NCBI GenBank assembly: GCA_035631375.1
Contig: DASQIW010000148.1
Location: 10,802 to 74,801, forward strand
Length of the DNA: 64,000 nucleotides
DNA from: Streptosporangiaceae bacterium
GTDB lineage: Bacteria > Actinomycetota > Actinomycetes > Streptosporangiales > Streptosporangiaceae
Direction of reading: 5' to 3'
Shown: piece after piece, positions 2,146-46,927 of the stretch
How positions within the stretch are numbered: the stretch's first letter is position 1
Layout of the letters: each line of letters opens with the position of its first letter
The notes under the pieces: model-generated
What the model was told of the DNA's origin: nothing
The model's database searches: none
The model's input: the letters and a program-made list of their open reading frames with translations, nothing else
Position numbers and translations under genes: made by a program

Positions 2146-2994
2146 ATGGCAAGGTTCTCCGGTCAGTCCAGTGCTGGTCCTGCTGTCTGGGAGCCCCAGG
2201 CTGCCGACACCCGCCTGGCGAGCACCGCCGGCGCGGCAGAAGGAGCCCTGTTCACCTCGGACCTGACTGTCTCGGAGTACGTGCTGCTCGGCGAAGCCGG
2301 CTTCGAGCCACTCGGCTTCGTTGTCGGATCGTCGATCTACCACGTGGGCATTCAGATCGGCCGCTGGTCGCAGAACCAGGAACTGCAGGTCCTCACCCAG
2401 GCCATGTACAACGCGCGGGAACTGGCGATGGCTCGTATGCAGGCCGAGGCCGACCACCTGGGCGCCGACGGCATCGTCGGCGTCGACCTCAAGATGCAGA
2501 TGTACGCGTGGGGTCAGGGGGTGCTCGAGTTCATCGCGACCGGTACCGCGGTGCGCCACCTCTCGGGTGCCGGTGCGCACAAGGCGCCAGACGGCCGCGC
2601 GTTCACCTCGGACCTGTCGGCCCAGGACTTCTTCCGGCTGATCGCCGCTGGCGCGGTCCCGGTGGCCTTTGTGCTCGGTACCTGCGTGTACCACATCGCA
2701 CACCAGTCGGTCATGCAGTCGCTGCGGCAAACCGGCCAGAACCAGGAGATGCCGCAATTCACCCAGGGCGTCTACGAAGCCCGCGAGCTAGCGCTGGCCC
2801 GGATGCAGGCCGAGGCGACACAGGCCCGCGCATCGGGCATCGTCGGGGTAACCGTCGACGTGCTCAATCACGTCTGGGGTGAGCACGCGACCGAGTTCCT
2901 CGCGACCGGCACCGCGATCCGGCGGCTAGGAGCGGAGCACCGGCTGCCGGAGACGACGCCGAAGCCGACCTTCACGCTGGGCCTTGACGCATAG
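2146..2994 (+). CDS. Tandem-duplicated YbjQ/UPF0145 (heavy-metal-binding-like) domain protein
   Basis: Two internal repeats, each ending ...ARELA(M/L)ARMQAEA....GIVGV......W.......EF.ATGTA.R. Confidence 0.8.
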   Translation: MARFSGQSSAGPAVWEPQAADTRLASTAGAAEGALFTSDLTVSEYVLLGEAGFEPLGFVVGSSIYHVGIQIGRWSQNQELQVLTQAMYNARELAMARMQAEADHLGADGIVGVDLKMQMYAWGQGVLEFIATGTAVRHLSGAGAHKAPDGRAFTSDLSAQDFFRLIAAGAVPVAFVLGTCVYHIAHQSVMQSLRQTGQNQEMPQFTQGVYEARELALARMQAEATQARASGIVGVTVDVLNHVWGEHATEFLATGTAIRRLGAEHRLPETTPKPTFTLGLDA

Positions 2995-3196
2995 CCCGGC
3001 AGGGACTTTTCACGCGTACGACCACTCCGCTGGCATACCGGTTGCTGTAAGGGTCACTCTCATCACGAGGCCGCCCCTCATAACGGTCCTGCTAGTTACT
3101 CTCATGACGCGAGCTGACTCCGATTCGCGTGATCGCGTTGCGCGACGGCCAGGTCAGCGAGATGGTGACCAGCAGTGACGAACGGGGGCTGCGGTC

Positions 3197-35143: not shown

Positions 35144-35884
35144 TCAGGGTCCGTCCCTCAGCCGGTCAAGGCCATCCAGGATGAGGTCCAGCCCGAACTC
35201 GAACTCGGTCTGGTCGTCGCACCAGCCGAGGGTCGAGTCGGGGTCGTCATGGGCGACCTCCTCGAGCATTCCGGCTAGATGCGGGAACTGGCTGGCCAGG
35301 TCCTGAGGGCCGGTACCCGGGTCGGCACCGGCGCTGTCGCCCGGATCGAAGAGCTCTTGCGAGAATCCCAGCGCCCGGCTGCCGAGCGCGTGCAGGGCAT
35401 GGTGGGCTACGTCATTGGAGAAGCCGCCTTGTCGCATGAGCCGCACCAGCTCATCGTGATAGCGCAGGACCGCCATGCTCATGGTGGTGCGCGTCTCAAG
35501 GACGCGAGGTGCCCAGGGGTGGCGAAGGAGTACCTGCCGGGCGGCCAGGATGCGTTGCCGGACGGCGCTCTTCCAGCTCCCTTCCCTGGCAGGCACGTCG
35601 ATCTGGCCGACGACGTTGTTGATCTCGGTCACGATCACGTCAATGACCCCGTCGAGGACGTCTTCCTTCTTCGCCACGTGGTAGTACAGCGACATCGCCT
35701 CGGCGCCGAGTTCGTCGGCGAGGCGGCGCATCGTGAGGGCCTCGAGCCCGCCCTCGTCGGCGACCTTGATCGCAGCCGCCAGCACGCGTTCCCTGCTCAG
35801 CGGGAGCCGCGGCTGAGTCTCCGTCCCGCTGCCGGCCACCTGCATCAGTCCTTTCCGCGTACCTGATCGTAAAAGGTCGGCCAC
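35144..35884 (-). CDS. TetR family transcriptional regulator
   Basis: ...LSRERVLAAAIKVADEGGLEALTMRRLADELGAEAMSLYYHVAKKEDVL.... GTG 35884 or ATG 35845 as start. Confidence 0.85.
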   Translation of the reverse strand: MADLLRSGTRKGLMQVAGSGTETQPRLPLSRERVLAAAIKVADEGGLEALTMRRLADELGAEAMSLYYHVAKKEDVLDGVIDVIVTEINNVVGQIDVPAREGSWKSAVRQRILAARQVLLRHPWAPRVLETRTTMSMAVLRYHDELVRLMRQGGFSNDVAHHALHALGSRALGFSQELFDPGDSAGADPGTGPQDLASQFPHLAGMLEEVAHDDPDSTLGWCDDQTEFEFGLDLILDGLDRLRDGP

Positions 35885-36029: not shown

Positions 36030-37016
36030 ATGAAGGCGTTCGTCCTGCGCTCCTATGGATCAGCCGACCAGCTTGAGCTCACCGATGTCGACACACCGGT
36101 GCCGGCCGACGACGAGGTCCTCGTGCGGGTGCGGGCCTCCTCGGTCAATCCTTATGACTGGCATCTCATGAGAGGCGAGCCCCTAGTCGCCCGCCTGCTG
36201 CCCGGGGGCATGGGCCTGCTCGGCCCGAAGCTGCGCATCCTGGGCTGCGACATAGCGGGCCAGGTCGAGGCTGCCGGACCAGCCGTCACTGCGTTCCGTC
36301 CTGGCGACGATGTGTTCGGCCTGCTCGAGCATGGCGGCTTCGCGCAGATGGTCAGCGTGCGCGACGAGCTGCTGGCCCCGATGCCGCGGGGCCTGTCGTA
36401 TGAGCAGGCGGCGGCGATGCCGATGGCGGCTGTCACGGCGCTGCTGGCGGTCAGGGACGCTGGCGCGGTTCAGGCCGGCCACGAGGTGCTGGTCACCGGG
36501 GCCTCCGGGGGCGTCGGAACGCATGCCGTTCAGATCGCGAGGGCTCTGGGCGCCTCGGTCACCGGTACCTGCAGCGCGCGCAACGCCGAGCTGGTCCGGT
36601 CCGTCGGCGCGGATCACGTCGTCGACTACGTCACCCAGGACGTTGCGCAGACCGGCTGCCGCTTCGACGTAGTCATCGACGTCGCGGGCAGCCGTCCGGT
36701 CACGGCGTACCGCCGGGTCGTTGCTCGCGACGGGAGGTTCGTTGTGGTCGGCGGTCCGGCTGGCCGCTGGCTGCAGCCCGCCGGTCACGTGATCGGCTCT
36801 TTCGCGCTGGCGCCCTTCGTGTCGCCGCGAATCGCGTCGCCTGATGTGGTGGGATGCCAGGCGAAAAAAGCGGCGCTGATGACGCTCACTGAGCTCGTCG
36901 AGGACGGCAGGCTGGCGCCCGTCATCGACCGGCGGTATCCATTCGACGACCTTCGCGCGGCGGTCAGCTACCAGGAGGCGGGCCATGCCGCGGGGAAGGT
37001 CGTCCTCGCGGTCTGA
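36030..37016 (+). CDS. NAD(P)-dependent oxidoreductase, medium-chain dehydrogenase/quinone reductase family
   Basis: ...VRVRASSVNPYDWHLMRG... and Rossmann VTGASGGVGTHAVQIA. Confidence 0.9.
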   Translation: MKAFVLRSYGSADQLELTDVDTPVPADDEVLVRVRASSVNPYDWHLMRGEPLVARLLPGGMGLLGPKLRILGCDIAGQVEAAGPAVTAFRPGDDVFGLLEHGGFAQMVSVRDELLAPMPRGLSYEQAAAMPMAAVTALLAVRDAGAVQAGHEVLVTGASGGVGTHAVQIARALGASVTGTCSARNAELVRSVGADHVVDYVTQDVAQTGCRFDVVIDVAGSRPVTAYRRVVARDGRFVVVGGPAGRWLQPAGHVIGSFALAPFVSPRIASPDVVGCQAKKAALMTLTELVEDGRLAPVIDRRYPFDDLRAAVSYQEAGHAAGKVVLAV

Positions 37017-37185
37017 AGCTCGCACCTTCGCATACGCCGCTAGGGCGGGCAGCTTCCGCAAAGAGCTACCCCCAGCCTGTGAACATCCTTGTGGATACCT
37101 TGGTGGATAAGCACCGACCTCGGGGGATAACAGATGGTTTCTTGTGGAGCCCAAAAAGAATCTTGAAATGCTTAGTAGAAAGCCC

Positions 37186-37216
37186 TTGCGCGCGGCGGGG
37201 CTGAGGCAGTAGAAAT
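37186..37216 (+). promoter_or_regulatory. Promoter-like element of copy 1: TTGCGC-N18-TAGAAAT
   Basis: -35-like TTGCGC (37186-37191) and -10-like TAGAAAT (37210-37216). The same architecture recurs in copy 2. Confidence 0.4.
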
Positions 37217-37222
37217 TCATTC

Positions 37223-37418
37223 ACCACCTGATGGGCGGGATCCCGGAGAGGCAACTCGAAGGGAAGCGTGAAGTCCGGGCAACCGACCTGATCGCAGCCC
37301 GCGTAAGTCAGGAGGCGGGTCCGGCCAAGAACTGACTCGGCTGAGCAATCGGCAGGTCAGCGGCATGGTTGGGTCCCCTGTGAGGCCCCTGCATCTCATA
37401 CATGGAGGGGCCTCACGG
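37223..37418 (+). ncRNA. Candidate structured sRNA, copy 1 (family not recognised)
   Basis: Inferred from the promoter-like element to the terminal hairpin 37380-37416. Helices shared with copy 2 include GNRA-capped hairpins. Ends are guesses. Confidence 0.35.
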
Positions 37419-37535
37419 CTGTCTGCGCCCACCTCCGTGTGGCGCTCAACAAGTGCAGCGTGCCATTCCGTCAAGGTCTCGGTGGAATTGTCGGTATGGG
37501 TTTGAACCCGGCACTTAGGAATCTTGCGAAACCGC

Positions 37536-37565
37536 TTGCGCCAGACCGTTGCGGCCGGTAGAAAT
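37536..37565 (+). promoter_or_regulatory. Promoter-like element of copy 2: TTGCGC-N17-TAGAAAT
   Basis: TTGCGC (37536-37541) and TAGAAAT (37559-37565), paralogous to 37186-37216. Confidence 0.4.
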
Positions 37566-37570
37566 CACTC

Positions 37571-37754
37571 ACGGTCACGAACGGATTCCGCCCCGGAGCA
37601 ATCCGCGGACGGCACTGCCGGGTAACCGCGCCTTGCCACCGGAATCTGCAGTGATCGCAGGCCAGCCCTGGCCCCGTCGCCGAGCGATCGGCGGTCGGGC
37701 GGGCGTGGCCGGACGGGTCCCTCCGCCTCATACGCGGAGGGACCCGTCTTGTTT
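37571..37754 (+). ncRNA. Candidate structured sRNA, copy 2, or 5' leader of the DUF2332 gene
   Basis: Promoter-like element upstream. Hairpins CGCCGA-GCGA-TCGGCG (37678-37693) and GGCCAG/CTGGCC (37660-37673). Ends in the intrinsic terminator at 37712-37754. Confidence 0.4.
37712..37754 (+). terminator. Intrinsic terminator: perfect 15-bp stem, 7-nt loop, TTGTTT tail
   Basis: GACGGGTCCCTCCGC-CTCATAC-GCGGAGGGACCCGTC followed by TTGTTT. The T-tract is on the + strand only. Confidence 0.75.
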
Positions 37755-37771
37755 CGAGGTTCGGGCGGCTC

Positions 37772-38908
37772 ATGGCGCAGGAAGACATGGCGGTCGGCCA
37801 GTGGACCGGCGCCTACAGTGACAGCGTGACCGCTCTCGGGGATCCGGGTCGCAGCGACGTGCAGGCGCGGACGGCGCGGATGCTGCGGTTGCAGGCTGGG
37901 GCCTGCCGCCAGCTTGGCAGCCCGCTGTATGGCGACCTTCTGCAGCGCGCAGCAGAGGATCTGCTGGCCGACGGTCAGCTCGGCGATGTTCTCGACGGCT
38001 TCCTCGACGACCAGCTCAAGAGCGCGCTCGCGCTGCGACTGCTCGGAGGCGTGCACGCGATCGTGCTCTCCGGCCGCGCGCCCGCGCTGGCGGCGTTTTA
38101 TCCGAGCGTCGGTGGCACGCCCGAGCGCCGGCCTGGCAGTCCGCGAGCCTGGGCTGCGTTCCAGCAGGTGCTCGCCGATTTCCGGGGTGAGCTCCGGTCC
38201 TGGCTCGACCACCCGCCGCAGACAAATGAGGTCGGCAGGGCGGCGGCGCTCCTCGGCGGTCTCCGTCATATCGCGGCCGAGGCGACCCTGCCCTTCCGCC
38301 TCGTGGAAGTCGGAGCGAGCGCCGGCCTGAACCTGCGGGCCGACCGGTTCTGTGTCCCCGGACCCGCAGGCAGCTACGGTGATCCGCACTCGCCCGTCGT
38401 CTTGACCGGCGGCTGGCTCGGCGACGCCCCGCCGGACAGCCGGATCGAGGTTGTCGAGCGCAACGGCGGTGACCTGGCACCGATCGATCCGCTCACCGAG
38501 GACGGCCGGCTGAGACTCACCGCCTACATATGGCCGGACCAGGCCGAGCGGCTCGCCAGGCTGCGCGGCGCGCTCGCCATCGCGGCTCAGGTCCCGGCCG
38601 CTCTCCGCATCGAGTCGGCGCCTGCGACGCTGGCCCGCACCAGGCTCGAAGCCGGCACATGGACGGTGCTGTGGCACTCGATCTTCCGGCAGTACCTCGA
38701 CGAAACCGAGCGTGCCGAGCTCGCCGTCCGGGTCGCCGAGATCGCTGCTACTGCCGCCGCGCGAGCGAGGTTCGCCTACCTCTACCTCGAGCCGTCGCGT
38801 GCGGGCGGCTGCCGGGTAACGCTGACGACGTGGCCCGGAGGGCATCGCCGGGTGCTTGGGTCGGCGCCGGCGCACGGTCTCCCCGTGCACTGGCAGGCGT
38901 CTTCCTGA
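37772..38908 (+). CDS. DUF2332 domain-containing protein
   Basis: 378 aa; ...CRQLGSPLYGDLL...LRLLGGVH...HPPQTNEVGR...VEVGASAGLNL...WHSIFRQY... matches my recollection of DUF2332. Possible alternative ATG at 37787. Confidence 0.8.
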   Translation: MAQEDMAVGQWTGAYSDSVTALGDPGRSDVQARTARMLRLQAGACRQLGSPLYGDLLQRAAEDLLADGQLGDVLDGFLDDQLKSALALRLLGGVHAIVLSGRAPALAAFYPSVGGTPERRPGSPRAWAAFQQVLADFRGELRSWLDHPPQTNEVGRAAALLGGLRHIAAEATLPFRLVEVGASAGLNLRADRFCVPGPAGSYGDPHSPVVLTGGWLGDAPPDSRIEVVERNGGDLAPIDPLTEDGRLRLTAYIWPDQAERLARLRGALAIAAQVPAALRIESAPATLARTRLEAGTWTVLWHSIFRQYLDETERAELAVRVAEIAATAAARARFAYLYLEPSRAGGCRVTLTTWPGGHRRVLGSAPAHGLPVHWQASS

Positions 38909-38951
38909 CAGCACGCCCGGGTTGCGACATGACGCGAAGCCTCATATCGTG

Positions 38952-38976
38952 CCGATGTATCAAGTCGATACATCGG
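38952..38976. promoter_or_regulatory. Perfect 10-5-10 inverted repeat CCGATGTATC-AAGTC-GATACATCGG
   Basis: Read directly. Lies between the DUF2332 stop and the methyltransferase start (SD AGGAAGG follows). Confidence 0.5.
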
Positions 38977-39000
38977 ACCGATAGTAGGAAGGCAGCTGAC

Positions 39001-39747
39001 ATGTCCGGCGAGCAGTTGTACGACACCATCGGTGCCACTTACACCGTGACGCGGCGCACCGAGCCGCGGATCGCCGCGCAGATCTGGGATGCCCTCGGCG
39101 ATGCGCAGACCGTGCTCAACGTCGGGGCGGGCACCGGCTCCTACGAGCCGCCCGGGCGTGACGTCACCGCTGTGGAACCGTCGGTGCTCATGCGTGCGCA
39201 GCGTCCCGCGGGCGCGGCGCCGTGCGTGGCTGCTGCCGCGGAGAGCCTTCCCTTCGAGAACCAGTCCTTCGACGCCGCGATGGCTGTGTCCACCGTCCAT
39301 CACTGGCAGGACCCGATCGCGGGCCTGCGCGAGATGAGGCGCGTGGCCCGCCGTGTGGTGGTGTTCACGCACGACAGCACTGCGGCCGGGTGGTGGCGTC
39401 GGTTCTGGCTGAGCCGCGACTACCTGCCTGAGGTCGCTGACCTCCTGATCGGCAGGCCTTCGCTGACCGAGCAGGCGCGCGTGATCGGAGCCCGCATCGA
39501 GCCGGTGCTCATTCCGTGGGACTGCGCCGACGGCTTCTTCGAGGCGTACTGGCGCCGGCCCGAGGCATACCTCGACGATCGTGTCCGTCGTGGACTGTCG
39601 GTGTGGGCCAGGCTGGGCCCGGACATCGAGCAGCGGGCAGTCTGCAGTCTCCGCGCTGACCTCGCGTCAGGCGAGTGGGCCGACCGCAACCGGGACCTCG
39701 TCGCTCTGGACGCGGCAGACCTCGGCCTCCTGCTGCTGATCGCCTGA
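39001..39747 (+). CDS. Class I SAM-dependent methyltransferase
   Basis: Start set at ATG 39001. Motif I VLNVGAGTGSY; ...SFDAAMAVSTVHHW.... Confidence 0.85.
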   Translation: MSGEQLYDTIGATYTVTRRTEPRIAAQIWDALGDAQTVLNVGAGTGSYEPPGRDVTAVEPSVLMRAQRPAGAAPCVAAAAESLPFENQSFDAAMAVSTVHHWQDPIAGLREMRRVARRVVVFTHDSTAAGWWRRFWLSRDYLPEVADLLIGRPSLTEQARVIGARIEPVLIPWDCADGFFEAYWRRPEAYLDDRVRRGLSVWARLGPDIEQRAVCSLRADLASGEWADRNRDLVALDAADLGLLLLIA

Positions 39748-41607: not shown

Positions 41608-42330
41608 GTGCGGATTGGCCGTGTGGTCAACGAGAATGGACTCGTGACTGGGCTTACTGATGGCGCGGCCGCCGTGGTTTTCGACTTCTTCGGCACCCTG
41701 ACTCCGGTAAGTCCGGATCAGGTGTGGGCTGGCAATGCTCGCCGCCTCGCGGCCGCGCTCGGCGCGCCCCCGGACGCGCTGCTGGCGGCGCTCGATGAGT
41801 CCTTTCCCGAGCGCATAACAGGCGAGCTTGGCGACGTGCGGCAGACCTTGCGGGTGCTCGCCGACCGGCTGGGCGTCCAGCCCTCAGCTGATCAGCTCGA
41901 TGACGCCAGCCAGGTCCGGCGCGAGATCCAGGAGTCAATGTTCGTGCTCCGGCCAGAGGCACTGCCGGTGATCCGCCGGCTCCGCGCTATCGGCCTGAAG
42001 ATCGGGGTGCTGTCTGACTGCACATCGGAGCTGCCGGATGCGTGGTCCAGGCTGCCGCTGGCCGGTTTGGTCGACGCCCCGGTGTTCTCCTGCATTGAGC
42101 GGACGCGCAAGCCCGACCCGAGGCTGTTCCGGACAGTAGCGGCGAACCTGCGCGCCGAGCCCGCGGCGTGCCTGTATGTCGGCGACGGCGGCGGCCGGGA
42201 GCTCACCGGGGCCAGCGACGTCGGCATGCGTGCGGTGCTGCTGGCCGGCCAGGACTGGCTCGCGCACCGCAGCACCGAGATCGGCTGGACCGGGCCGCGG
42301 ATCGGTTCGCTCACCGACCTGTGCCCCTGA
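41608..42330 (+). CDS. HAD family hydrolase
   Basis: Motif I VVFDFFGTL, motif III/IV ...RKPDPRLF...YVGDGGGREL. Start possibly GTG 41644. Confidence 0.8.
   Translation: MRIGRVVNENGLVTGLTDGAAAVVFDFFGTLTPVSPDQVWAGNARRLAAALGAPPDALLAALDESFPERITGELGDVRQTLRVLADRLGVQPSADQLDDASQVRREIQESMFVLRPEALPVIRRLRAIGLKIGVLSDCTSELPDAWSRLPLAGLVDAPVFSCIERTRKPDPRLFRTVAANLRAEPAACLYVGDGGGRELTGASDVGMRAVLLAGQDWLAHRSTEIGWTGPRIGSLTDLCP

Positions 42331-43303: not shown

Positions 43304-46927
<3,624 letters not shown>

Follow-up and report, generated by a model that had tools for sequence, protein, structure and literature searches.

A tandem pair of candidate small-RNA genes of an uncatalogued structured family, preceded by a DnaA-box-like array, in Streptosporangiaceae

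Introduction

Ms1 (MTS2823 / scr3559) and 6S RNA are among the closest known systems to the kind of molecule considered here, i.e. an actinobacterial, separately transcribed and structured RNA of ~200-300 nt with its own sigma-70-like promoter and a terminal hairpin. Both are widespread over orders and act by binding RNA polymerase, not by base pairing. The synteny described for Ms1 places it between a HAD-IB hydrolase (or CpaE) gene and a gene for an oxidoreductase or glycosidase (PMC9130861). A DnaA-box-like array and hairpin modules in varying number, two features of the family described below, are not mentioned in the Ms1 literature examined.

Intergenic arrays of multiple DnaA boxes, to which the box-like sites of the present locus may be compared, are represented by the DBCs of Bacillus subtilis, datA/DARS of Escherichia coli and the D78 cluster of Streptomyces; some of these clusters control a neighbouring promoter, others titrate DnaA. 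Both Firmicutes and Actinobacteria possess such clusters away from oriC with a role in regulating initiation (PMC3245932). Unlike these known clusters, the putative array reported here is fixed to a conserved RNA gene, is shared across orders and has its positions set relative to a promoter.

Three further groups of RNAs invite comparison. The CsrB/RsmZ sponges carry repeated short hairpin modules on a constant framework, as does the present family (2 to >10 modules), although their loops are GGA motifs whereas those of the present family are GNRA tetraloops, which limits the likeness to one of design; to our knowledge, CsrA is absent from Actinobacteria. OmrA/OmrB, AbcR1/2 and Qrr are, like the present pair, diverged head-to-tail copies that are kept in many species, and each has its own promoter and terminator, to which a putative promoter and a candidate terminator correspond in the present copies; they are ~80-110 nt long and act by seed pairing, whereas the present RNAs are ~190 nt long, have a complex fold and carry an upstream array on the first copy only. 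Finally, raiA, OLE, ROOL and GOLLD resemble the present RNA in their strong covariation, their junctions of several stems, their multiple GNRA tetraloops and their orphan function, but they are unmatched here in Rfam, and the basic form of the present RNA is smaller than they are and comes with a distinctive promoter module.

Here we describe a locus that we read, with a probability of about 0.6, as two paralogous genes of one structured small-RNA family, with putative promoters and terminators, proposed control by DnaA and a presumed action in trans.

The locus and its two copies

The window, i.e. the whole 64-kb stretch of DNA analysed, contains a gap of 755 nt between a quinone-oxidoreductase-like gene and a DUF2332 gene (Table 1), and the GC content of this gap (0.56-0.63) is below that of its flanks (0.68-0.74), as had been claimed in an earlier, sequence-only reading of the same DNA. 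That reading had also proposed a tandem pair of diverged units with collinear blocks at offsets of 332-363 nt. A repeat search recovered these blocks, and the pair is borne out at z = 6-9, the alignment of units U1 and U2 being collinear and scoring 6.3-9.2 SD over dinucleotide shuffles under three scoring schemes. In a local alignment, CTCGGGGGA..TAACAG of copy 1 is aligned with CTCGGTGGAATTGTCGG of copy 2, in support of relics of the box array and of the A-rich motif in the spacer between the copies. A 15-bp hairpin with a CTCATAC loop occurs at just two sites in the 64 kb, both of them here, for an expected number of 0. Each unit appears to be a complete gene and not part of one long RNA, and the duplication is older than the divergence of ~43 Streptosporangiaceae MAG species.

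Table 1. Coordinates of the features at the locus (window numbering; sites and transcripts are predicted).
Feature	Position	Strand	Details
Gap	37017-37771		755 nt
Unit U1	37085-37425
Unit U2	37455-37760
DnaA-box-like array	37078..37151	+	Five 9-mers in a single orientation, ahead of copy 1 only
Box-like site	37078		TGTGAACAT
Box-like site	37090		TGTGGATAC
Box-like site	37102		GGTGGATAA
Box-like site	37122		GGGGGATAA
Box-like site	37143		TGTGGAGCC
A-rich upstream motif	37155..37168	+	AAAGAATCTTGAAA; about -68 to -55 from the putative copy 1 start
Putative copy 1 promoter	37186..37216	+	TTGCGC 37186-37191 (-35-like), 18-nt non-conserved spacer, TAGAAAT 37210-37216 (-10-like)
RNA copy 1	37223..37420	+	~198 nt; putative start at the invariant A 37223
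Copy 1 P1	37224-37232 / 37307-37315		The two strands pair
Copy 1 P2	37248-37257		GNRA hairpin, GCAA loop
Copy 1 P3	37275-37286		GNRA hairpin, GCAA loop
Copy 1 domain II	37317-37377		Cap GCUGA-GCAA-UCGGC 37340-37353
Copy 1 terminal hairpin	37378-37418		CUCAUAC loop 37395-37401
Spacer between copies	37421..37535	+	Degenerate box relics and truncated A-rich motif
Box relic in spacer	37481		GGTGGAATT
Truncated A-rich motif in spacer	37516-37529		TAGGAATCTTGCGA
Putative copy 2 promoter	37536..37565	+	TTGCGC 37536-37541, 17-nt spacer, TAGAAAT 37559-37565; architecture as copy 1
RNA copy 2	37571..37752	+	~182 nt
Copy 2 P1	37572-37578 / 37651-37657		The two strands pair
Copy 2 P2	37594-37605		GNRA hairpin, GCAA loop
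Copy 2 P3	37617-37629		GNRA hairpin, GUAA loop
Copy 2 domain II	37660-37710		Cap CGCCGA-GCGA-UCGGCG 37678-37693
Copy 2 terminal hairpin	37711-37749		CUCAUAC loop 37727-37733; UUGUUU tail after

It would be most surprising if the gap were a decayed protein-coding gene or housed genes for small proteins. Several ORFs of 40-105 aa do overlap it, in a number as by chance at 60-70% GC, but a Pfam search of these ORFs gave nothing above the curated cutoff, the sole match being Etmic-2 at 16.6 bits against a cutoff of 27. Moreover, indels between orthologues are of 1 or 2 nt in 180/195 cases for U1 and in 306/329 for U2 (mostly 1 nt), and a stop-free frame is kept in at most 44% of orthologues, whichever frame is considered. 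The absence of Pfam matches above cutoff, the short indels and the frames broken by stops agree with the earlier statement that the gap is not decaying coding DNA.

Predicted fold and covariation

Both copies are predicted to adopt the same fold, in which the stem at the 5' end closes a three-way junction, so that a Y-shaped domain bearing two GNRA hairpins results; next come a long GNRA-capped hairpin and a terminal hairpin whose CUCAUAC loop is invariant. The minimum free energy (MFE) is -102.3 kcal/mol for copy 1 (z = -4.3) and -116.8 kcal/mol for copy 2 (z = -5.6), the order of the domains being the same in both. Covariation, for which the sequence-only reading had recommended a check, is strong within U1, within U2 and across the family. 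Among 44 orthologues of U1, 90% of cells are standard pairs and compensatory change affects 36/54 pairs, versus 11-21 in slid controls, while among 41 orthologues of U2 the corresponding values are 89% of cells and 28/50 pairs, versus 8-19 in controls. Across 46 family representatives that share less than 72% identity, pairing is kept in 88% of cells versus 33-49% in slid controls, compensatory change is seen at 37/43 pairs versus 15-21, and the covariation score is 0.43 versus 0.06-0.12, values that were reached by 0/500 shuffles. The frequency of G-U pairs, set against the scarcity of A-C pairs, points to the + strand, and the alignments demonstrate selection on the predicted fold at the RNA level, specific to that strand. 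The shared three-domain fold, the covariation and the lack of a coding signal are what would be expected of the old duplication of a structured RNA that had been proposed.

Some of the details of that proposal require revision. The notion that the units are RNA applies to their structured part and not to the first ~70 nt of each, which is promoter-like and in which no helix is predicted; the blocks GAATCTTG, CTTGCGC, GTAGAAAT and CAYTCAC, which had been listed among the collinear blocks of the units, fall into this helix-free portion. The helices AGTCAG/CTGACT, GGCCAG/CTGGCC and CCCGG/CCGGG, as claimed earlier, are not the MFE pairings; instead, AGUCAGG pairs with CCUGAU at the 5' end to form P1, and CUGACU pairs with AGGUCAG. 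Similarly, TGATCGCAG had been listed as an equivalent block of the two copies, yet it occupies non-equivalent positions, belonging to the outer part of the P3 stem in U1 but to the 3' strand of P1 in U2.

As a side observation, the CUCAUAC loop may mimic the anticodon loop of tRNA(CAU). No tRNA genes are present in the 64-kb window, and GTATGAG, the pairing target of this loop, is not enriched in it (6 occurrences vs 2.9 expected, two of which are the hairpins themselves).

Relation to catalogued RNA families and to Ms1

A search of the whole window against Rfam 15 gave 0 matches at the gathering score. When positions 36950-37850 were searched permissively (E<=10), chance matches only were obtained (miRNA models and the hairpin, <=19.8 bits), and among seven orthologous loci searched at E<=1 nothing was found inside the units. 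The earlier statement that the element could not be matched to a known RNA family, made with the advice to consult Rfam, is upheld by these searches. The available evidence supports the view that the RNA family is undescribed, in that nothing was found in Rfam 15 or in the literature searched, Ms1 having been compared by means of sequences from Mycobacterium smegmatis and Streptomyces coelicolor.

The possibility that the RNA is a local, duplicated version of Ms1 or of a 6S-like RNA, both of them abundant in actinobacteria and able to bind RNA polymerase, deserves attention, even though we consider it improbable. Ms1 has been predicted in Streptosporangiaceae and Propionibacteriales, which is the broad range of the present family, and the published Ms1 intergenic regions of Streptosporangiales measure 0.9-1.5 kb, so that tandem copies are conceivable there; furthermore, an oxidoreductase gene lies on the left flank here, as it does for Ms1, and the mapped 5' end of Ms1 is an A, like the putative start of the present RNA. 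However, sequence similarity to the characterised Ms1 of M. smegmatis and S. coelicolor is undetectable. Against the full M. smegmatis Ms1 and ~137 nt of primer/probe fragments of S. coelicolor Ms1 (PMC9130861, PMC4191392, PMC8539372), nhmmer profiles of the present family returned E = 0.26-1.4 with negative bit scores for the former and no match for the latter, while blastn-short of Ms1 against the region gave chance matches only, none of them within the units. The folds also differ, M. smegmatis Ms1 forming a long rod with a central bubble and the present RNA, in its MFE as well as its covariation-supported structure, a three-way junction followed by hairpins. In terms of gene context, the locus lacks the HAD-IB neighbour that defines Ms1 (the HAD gene closest by, at 41608-42330, belongs to class IA and is three genes off), the oxidoreductase neighbour is seen in this species only, and the flanking genes are unrelated across the present family, whereas Ms1 synteny is conserved. 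The 6S RNA model (RF00013), finally, was unmatched in the Rfam searches of the window and of the orthologous loci.

Putative promoters and transcript ends

Each copy consists of a promoter-like block followed by a predicted structured RNA of ~180-200 nt, an arrangement that is evident from the alignments. The A-rich motif has one occurrence in the window, is near-invariant in orthologues of both U1 and U2, and degenerates to a general A-rich stretch in distant family members. Downstream of it, the pattern TTGCGN - variable spacer - TAnnAAT was recovered in 144/179 units examined, with a spacer of 17 nt in 40 and of 18 nt in 103 of them (143/144), so that -35- and -10-like blocks at 17+/-1 nt point to a promoter of the RNA's own. 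RNAalifold predicts the region upstream of the putative start to be helix-free, and P1 begins at nucleotide 2 of the presumed RNA in both copies and in the family alignment. We infer from these features that transcription starts at ~37223 and ~37571 from sigma-70-type promoters. A scan for generic E. coli-type sigma-70 promoters and terminators gave zero matches. The -10-like 7-mer TAnnAAT fits TANNNT imperfectly.

All family members possess the GC-rich terminal stem, which measures 15-17 bp. The U tract is weak, amounting to UUGUUU after copy 2 and missing after copy 1. U-poor terminators occur in Actinobacteria, and the terminal hairpin is a candidate terminator of this type.

Distribution, boundaries and expansion of the family

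In GTDB, 43 loci from Streptosporangiaceae MAGs carry the tandem pair, mostly directly upstream of DUF2332 and on the same strand, while a metagenome scan yielded at least 120 contigs with the family, ~96 of which carry full units among the matches listed. Most of these metagenomic contigs, again among the matches listed, contain a single unit in an unrelated gene context, and one unit was found in an NCBI MAG labelled as Propionibacteriaceae. The family is widespread in soil Actinomycetota and mostly single copy. A search for homologues had been suggested by the sequence-only reading, and it was answered by both related genomes (~43 Streptosporangiaceae MAGs) and metagenomes; the wide distribution, the single copy as the canonical form and the DnaA-box-like array ahead of this single copy go beyond what that reading contained. 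With regard to the adjoining protein, all 120 matches listed in a search for DUF2332 homologues are metagenomic or from MAGs, and zero matches were obtained against PDB sequences.

The proximity of DUF2332 raises the alternative of a cis-acting leader, riboswitch or attenuator for the downstream DUF2332/methyltransferase genes, which would be consistent with the position and strand of the pair in most GTDB loci, with the distance of ~22 nt between the end of the copy 2 terminal hairpin and the annotated ATG of DUF2332, and with the hairpin-only copies that flank DUF2332 in more distant genomes. We nevertheless regard this alternative, also raised in the sequence-only reading as a 'tandem leader', as very unlikely, because a separate promoter-like block precedes each copy and a strong 15-17 bp hairpin closes it, the gene contexts are mostly unrelated and genes may be inserted. 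In fact, DUF2332 is nearby in 2/120 metagenomic loci among the matches listed, other neighbours include MFS, ETF, ABC, AraC, TenA, GNAT, ACAD, IS66 and accA genes in either orientation, and genes intervene between copy 2 and DUF2332 in loci L008-L012, L030, L032, L052, L053 and L063.

The single-copy module measures ~350 nt and is sharply bounded: homology begins at the first box-like site and stops where the hairpin ends, and flanking sequence is common to just 12/722 pairs. Such sharp limits between unrelated flanks could also denote a mobile or selfish element of small size, whether MITE-like or left over from an integrative element, or a plasmid or phage origin. In favour of this explanation, one copy adjoins an IS66 transposase gene, one locus (L194) holds two full units plus part of a third within 4.3 kb, and DnaA boxes beside an A-rich stretch recall replication origins. 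Against it, target-site duplications and terminal inverted repeats at the module ends are at chance level (longest direct repeat 5.7 nt vs 5.8 in the null), the family is unmatched in 72,556 plasmids and 50,697 phages and its hairpin pattern in IMG/VR, a protein gene accompanying the module was not seen, synteny with DUF2332 is kept over ~43 species, and the family occurs at one locus only within the 64-kb window. Taken together, an element of any of these kinds seems very unlikely.

Across relatives the number of GNRA-capped hairpin modules ranges from 2 to >10, whereas the rest of the RNA is constant. Variants of 712 nt have more than 10 GNRA hairpins added to domain I (z = -10.8), and the loops of the hairpins in expanded variants are GNRA or GAAA.

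The DnaA-box-like array

The five sites of the array, read on the + strand, match TGTGGATAA, the reverse complement of TTATCCACA (DnaA-box consensus sequences from PMC4285127, Table 1), and are spaced by 12, 12, 20 and 21 nt. Just two sites in the 64 kb have <=1 mismatch to the consensus, and both are within the array. The block GGTGGAWW, noted earlier in both copies, corresponds at 37102 to one of these five sites, the matching block in U2 being a degenerate relic. Across 45 U1 copies, box-like sites lie at about -75, -63, -52, -32 and -11 from the A-rich motif, in one orientation and fixed phase. At <=2 mismatches these copies have a mean of 4.9 sites per 160 nt versus a background of 0.11 (~40-fold), and at <=1 mismatch a mean of 2.1 versus 0.004 (~500-fold), while a mean of 0.28 sites is found upstream of U2 copies. 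Among the matches listed, 85/88 metagenomic units with enough upstream sequence have 3-8 box-like sites, and divergent family members carry the actinobacterial box form TTGTCCACA; several sites near TTATCCACA or TTGTCCACA within ~150 bp are thus conserved across species, as in a DnaA-box cluster. The array may consist of DnaA-binding sites, or an alternative factor with a similar site may bind to it instead.

It has to be considered whether the element acts mainly as DNA, namely as a cluster of DnaA boxes that titrates or modulates DnaA, with any transcript being secondary. Nothing accompanies the module as constantly as the box-like array does, and in one locus (L049) it leads straight into the terminal hairpin, the RNA body being absent. 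On the other hand, the ~200 nt downstream of the array are under strand-specific pairing selection, with many G-U pairs and compensatory changes, which DNA titration leaves unexplained; in addition, copy 2 is conserved in 41 species without the array. For these reasons a primarily DNA-based function appears rather unlikely. A role at the DNA level and a role as RNA would be compatible with each other.

Proposed function and significance

Returning to the reading of the locus as a pair of small-RNA genes, our best guess is that their product is a DnaA-controlled, protein-binding RNA. DnaA would bind the array and tune transcription of copy 1, and copy 2, having lost the array, would escape this control. 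The RNA would act in trans on a protein that it binds, serving as scaffold or sponge, a role that is suggested by the variation among relatives in GNRA-hairpin modules, from 2 to >10 with the rest fixed. A variable count of such modules on a constant framework is what one would expect if an RNA were designed for multivalent protein binding.

More speculatively, and with low confidence on our part, these elements could form a hitherto unrecognised regulatory circuit of soil Actinomycetota, in which the phased DnaA-box array would tie transcription of a modular RNA rich in GNRA hairpins to the state of the replication initiator. The RNA, in turn, would sequester a protein, for which DnaA itself, RNA polymerase and a nucleoid factor are possible candidates, and the more hairpin modules it has, the more it could hold. 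If true, replication initiation and cell physiology would be linked through an RNA of a rank comparable to 6S, Ms1 or CsrB. In the literature searched on DnaA boxes with sRNA, on Streptomyces DnaA regulons and on DUF2332, nothing relevant was found and no link of this kind between replication initiation and an RNA regulator is described; the joining of an RNA gene to a conserved, helically phased DnaA-box-like array is suggestive of one. If real, the family would constitute a new class of structured RNA with a wide distribution in soil Actinomycetota, a group that is abundant although most of its members are uncultured. Its >100 examples, well-supported fold and clear gene limits make a strong case and are enough for a family model. 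The tandem pair provides a natural comparison, with copy 1 possessing the array and copy 2 lacking it.

Tandem RNA units in the gene-free gap

The gap upstream of the DUF2332 gene (see table) has a GC content of 0.56-0.63 versus 0.68-0.74 in its surroundings, and a sequence-only reading had proposed that it holds an undescribed duplicated structured RNA or, alternatively, a tandem leader. The tandem-unit observation is real: collinear alignment of the two units scored 6.3-9.2 SD over dinucleotide-preserving shuffles, and a repeat search recovered the shared blocks reported earlier. Each unit ends in a hairpin with a 15-bp stem and a CTCATAC loop, a combination present at two sites in the whole 64 kb (expected number, 0). 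The view that the region is not decaying coding DNA was likewise borne out, and a protein-coding reading was rejected, on three grounds: no ORF in the gap matched a Pfam family above the curated cutoff, indels between orthologues were overwhelmingly of 1-2 nt, and no reading frame that is open in most orthologues was found.

Features of the RNA locus (window coordinates)
Feature	Position	Strand	Remarks
TetR gene	35144-35884	-	between orf145 and the RNA module
Quinone-oxidoreductase-like gene	36030-37016	+	left border of gap
Gene-free gap	37017-37771		between quinone-oxidoreductase-like and DUF2332 genes
DnaA-box-like 9-mer	37078		TGTGAACAT; all five in one orientation, upstream of copy 1
DnaA-box-like 9-mer	37090		TGTGGATAC
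DnaA-box-like 9-mer	37102		GGTGGATAA
DnaA-box-like 9-mer	37122		GGGGGATAA
DnaA-box-like 9-mer	37143		TGTGGAGCC
RNA copy 1	37223-37420	+	MFE -102.3 kcal/mol, z = -4.3
RNA copy 2	37571-37752	+	MFE -116.8 kcal/mol, z = -5.6
DUF2332 gene	37772-38908		right border of gap

Promoter-like block and RNA fold

Alignment A1 comprised 85 units, namely 44 orthologues of copy 1 and 41 of copy 2. The leading 70 nt or so of each unit are not RNA-like, and RNAalifold predicted no helix there. This part consists of a near-invariant AAAGAATCTTGAAA, about 17 semi-conserved nt and CTTGCGCG, followed by a fixed-length spacer without sequence conservation, GTAGAAAT and TCAYTCAC. TTGCGN and TAnnAAT, separated by 17 nt in 40 units and by 18 nt in 103, were found in 144 of 179 units, and this layout, in which a spacer of variable sequence keeps two conserved hexamer-like blocks at a constant distance, is a promoter signature. 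An invariant A lies 7 nt 3' of the 7-mer, and because the first covarying helix begins just past it, at the second nucleotide from there, transcription would start at about 37223 (copy 1) and 37571 (copy 2).

Folded from these putative starts, both copies adopt the same predicted architecture: domain I, a three-way junction with two GNRA-capped hairpins, closed by the stem (P1) that the 5' end forms; domain II, a long, irregular hairpin with the cap GCCGA-GNAA-UCGGC; and domain III, the terminal hairpin of 15-17 bp with its CUCAUAC loop. Paired cells, compensatory changes and covariation score all exceeded their controls. Standard pairs filled 90% of cells in copy 1 orthologues and 89% in copy 2 orthologues (slid partners, 32-46%), with compensatory changes at 36 of 54 and 28 of 50 pairs, respectively (controls, 8-21). 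Among 46 family representatives of less than 72% identity (alignment A3), the corresponding figures were 88% paired cells versus 33-49% when slid and both-side changes in 37 of 43 pairs versus 15-21, while the covariation score was 0.43 versus 0.06-0.12 and none of 500 shuffles reached such values. G-U pairs are frequent in the family and A-C pairs rare, and therefore it is the + strand that is under selection. Several helices proposed earlier (AGTCAG/CTGACT, GGCCAG/CTGGCC and CCCGG/CCGGG) are not the predicted pairings.

The invariant 7-nt CUCAUAC loop (37395-37401 and 37727-37733) is laid out like an anticodon loop (C32 U33 C34 A35 U36 A37 C38), CAU being the anticodon of tRNA-Met and tRNA-Ile2, and it is also complementary to GUAUGAG, which has a start codon inside. 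Either property could be functionally relevant.

Orthologues at the DUF2332 locus

A DUF2332 protein search of GTDB species representatives yielded 79 loci, 43 of which keep the tandem pair upstream of DUF2332, all in MAGs labelled Streptosporangiaceae or uncultured Actinomycetota. Copy 1 orthologues cluster together, as do copy 2 orthologues, and thus the duplication is older than the carrier species (DUF2332 protein identity, 65-82%). The left neighbours of the pair vary, and the oxidoreductase and TetR genes are confined to the window's species. Upstream of the module in L007, L009, L011 and L012, the closest homologue detected is one of orf145. The segment 35144-37016, which holds both genes, has the appearance of a recent insertion after which the box array stayed joined to the RNA gene.

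Single units occur in L038, where copy 2 was lost, and in L052, L053 and L063, where domain II of the copy-1-like unit contains about 25 inserted nt. The one unit of L045 (1671-2059) matches the profile to position 206 in its 5' part and restarts at 113 in its 3' part, consistent with a copy 1/copy 2 recombinant produced by unequal crossing-over. In more distant genomes (L054-L058, L061 and L065, with DUF2332 54-59% identical, and also L091), the terminal hairpin alone survives as GGCCCCTCCAG-CTCATAC-CTGGAGGGGCC, directly 3' of the DUF2332 stop codon (e.g. L058:5065-5098), with a conserved CACATGATGCCCAA after it in 5 of 7 distant loci. The hairpin, surviving without the RNA body, would thus appear to serve a function independent of it.

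A wider family in varied gene contexts

A hairpin-pattern scan of metagenome contigs returned at least 120 stretches, among which, as listed, a profile search recognized at least about 96 full units (promoter block and RNA). Among the matches listed, metagenomic units are nearly all single, and DUF2332 is nearby for two only; their neighbours are unrelated (MFS, ETF, ABC transporter, AraC, TenA, GNAT, acyl-CoA dehydrogenase, IS66 and acyl-CoA carboxylase). Even at the DUF2332 locus, genes intervene between the RNA unit(s) and DUF2332 in ten cases. Such varied contexts among the loci listed contradict a leader or riboswitch for DUF2332 and, with it, the tandem-leader option. A divergent member lies upstream of accA in a Propionibacteriaceae-labelled NCBI MAG (GCA_045806785.1), and thus the family is present in at least two actinobacterial orders.

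Ms1, the RNA polymerase-binding RNA of actinobacteria, is predicted in the same orders and also has an oxidoreductase neighbour. However, the family showed no similarity to the Ms1 sequences compared (full-length from M. smegmatis, about 137 nt from S. coelicolor), Ms1 folds as a rod with a central bubble, its HAD-IB neighbour is missing here, and its synteny is conserved whereas that of the family is not; identity with Ms1 is quite improbable. Rfam 15 gave no match at the gathering score and only chance matches at E<=10, and with no match in the literature searched either, the proposal of an undescribed duplicated structured RNA stands.

Homology between units extends from 75-100 nt before the A-rich motif to the hairpin end, and flanking sequence is common to only 12 of 722 unit pairs. 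Neither target-site duplications nor terminal repeats were found at module ends, nor any matches in plasmid, phage and IMG/VR collections. Metagenomic contig L194 has full units at 674-933 and 2934-3194 (- strand), about 2 kb apart, and a third, partial one at 7-77, and thus the module has also multiplied locally outside the DUF2332 locus. In L095 (2562-3345), L152 (4396-5181), L167 and L178, about 520 nt interrupt the unit; the expanded 712-nt RNA (MFE -383.5 kcal/mol, z = -10.8) retains P1 as well as domain II and the terminal hairpin, and its domain I gains more than 10 extra GAAA-/GNRA-capped hairpins, which are made up of a repeat of about 38 nt in which GCCACC(C)GG recurs. L164 and L132 carry shorter insertions at the same site.

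The DnaA-box-like array

The five 9-mers upstream of copy 1 are similar to the E. coli (TTATCCACA) or actinobacterial (TTGTCCACA) DnaA box in reverse complement, TGTGGATAA and TGTGGACAA, respectively (PMC4285127 Table 1), and the two best are the sole sites with <=1 mismatch in the entire window. Across 45 copy 1 units the sites lie at about -75, -63, -52, -32 and -11 from the A-rich motif, and thus at spacings near one or two helical turns. Copy 1 units average 4.9 sites (<=2 mismatches) per 160 nt versus a background of 0.11, and copy 2 units 0.28. Among the matches listed, 85 of the 88 metagenomic units with enough upstream sequence have 3-8 box-like sites, and the textbook boxes TTGTCCACA and TTATCCACG occur in divergent members, in either orientation. 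The canonical module thus comprises array, promoter block and RNA, in that order, and the window's copy 2, judged from its upstream sequence, is a derived duplicate without the array, of which only degenerate relics persist. In L049 (3380-3520), the CTCATAC hairpin comes straight after six box-like sites, without promoter block or RNA body in between and about 175 nt upstream of DUF2332; the module may here be minimal in form or have been reduced by deletion.

Proposed mechanism and local gene context

In the window, a structured RNA that is itself widespread has undergone a lineage-specific duplication, and it is accompanied by a conserved regulatory array of an unusual kind; this goes beyond what was first proposed. 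We place the probability of the whole package (a new structured sRNA family, tandem paralogues and a DnaA-box-array promoter) at roughly 0.6. Each copy would be an independent gene, starting at a sigma-70-type promoter and ending at the terminal hairpin. Transcription of copy 1 would be tuned by DnaA, or by another factor that prefers such sites, bound to the phased array (79-145 nt before the start), and copy 2 would be constitutive or under different control. The array may in addition act at the DNA level, for instance through titration of DnaA. The complex fold, the three GNRA loops, the strong conservation of the terminal loop and a constant frame with varying numbers of hairpin modules argue for a protein-binding RNA over a seed-pairing sRNA. 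Taken alone, a sponge function is less certain than the package, and doubtful.

The true start codon of DUF2332 probably lies downstream of 37772, since homologues align from about residue 31 and many are annotated with 342 aa. The ORF at 38530-39747, listed as a methyltransferase, overlaps DUF2332; identical contigs have it as a 248-aa product (about 39001-39747). At 5.5 kb downstream of the RNA pair, beyond two methyltransferase-type genes, is a full-length cobalamin-dependent methionine synthase gene, metH (43304-46927, - strand; 1804 bits to NF007024).
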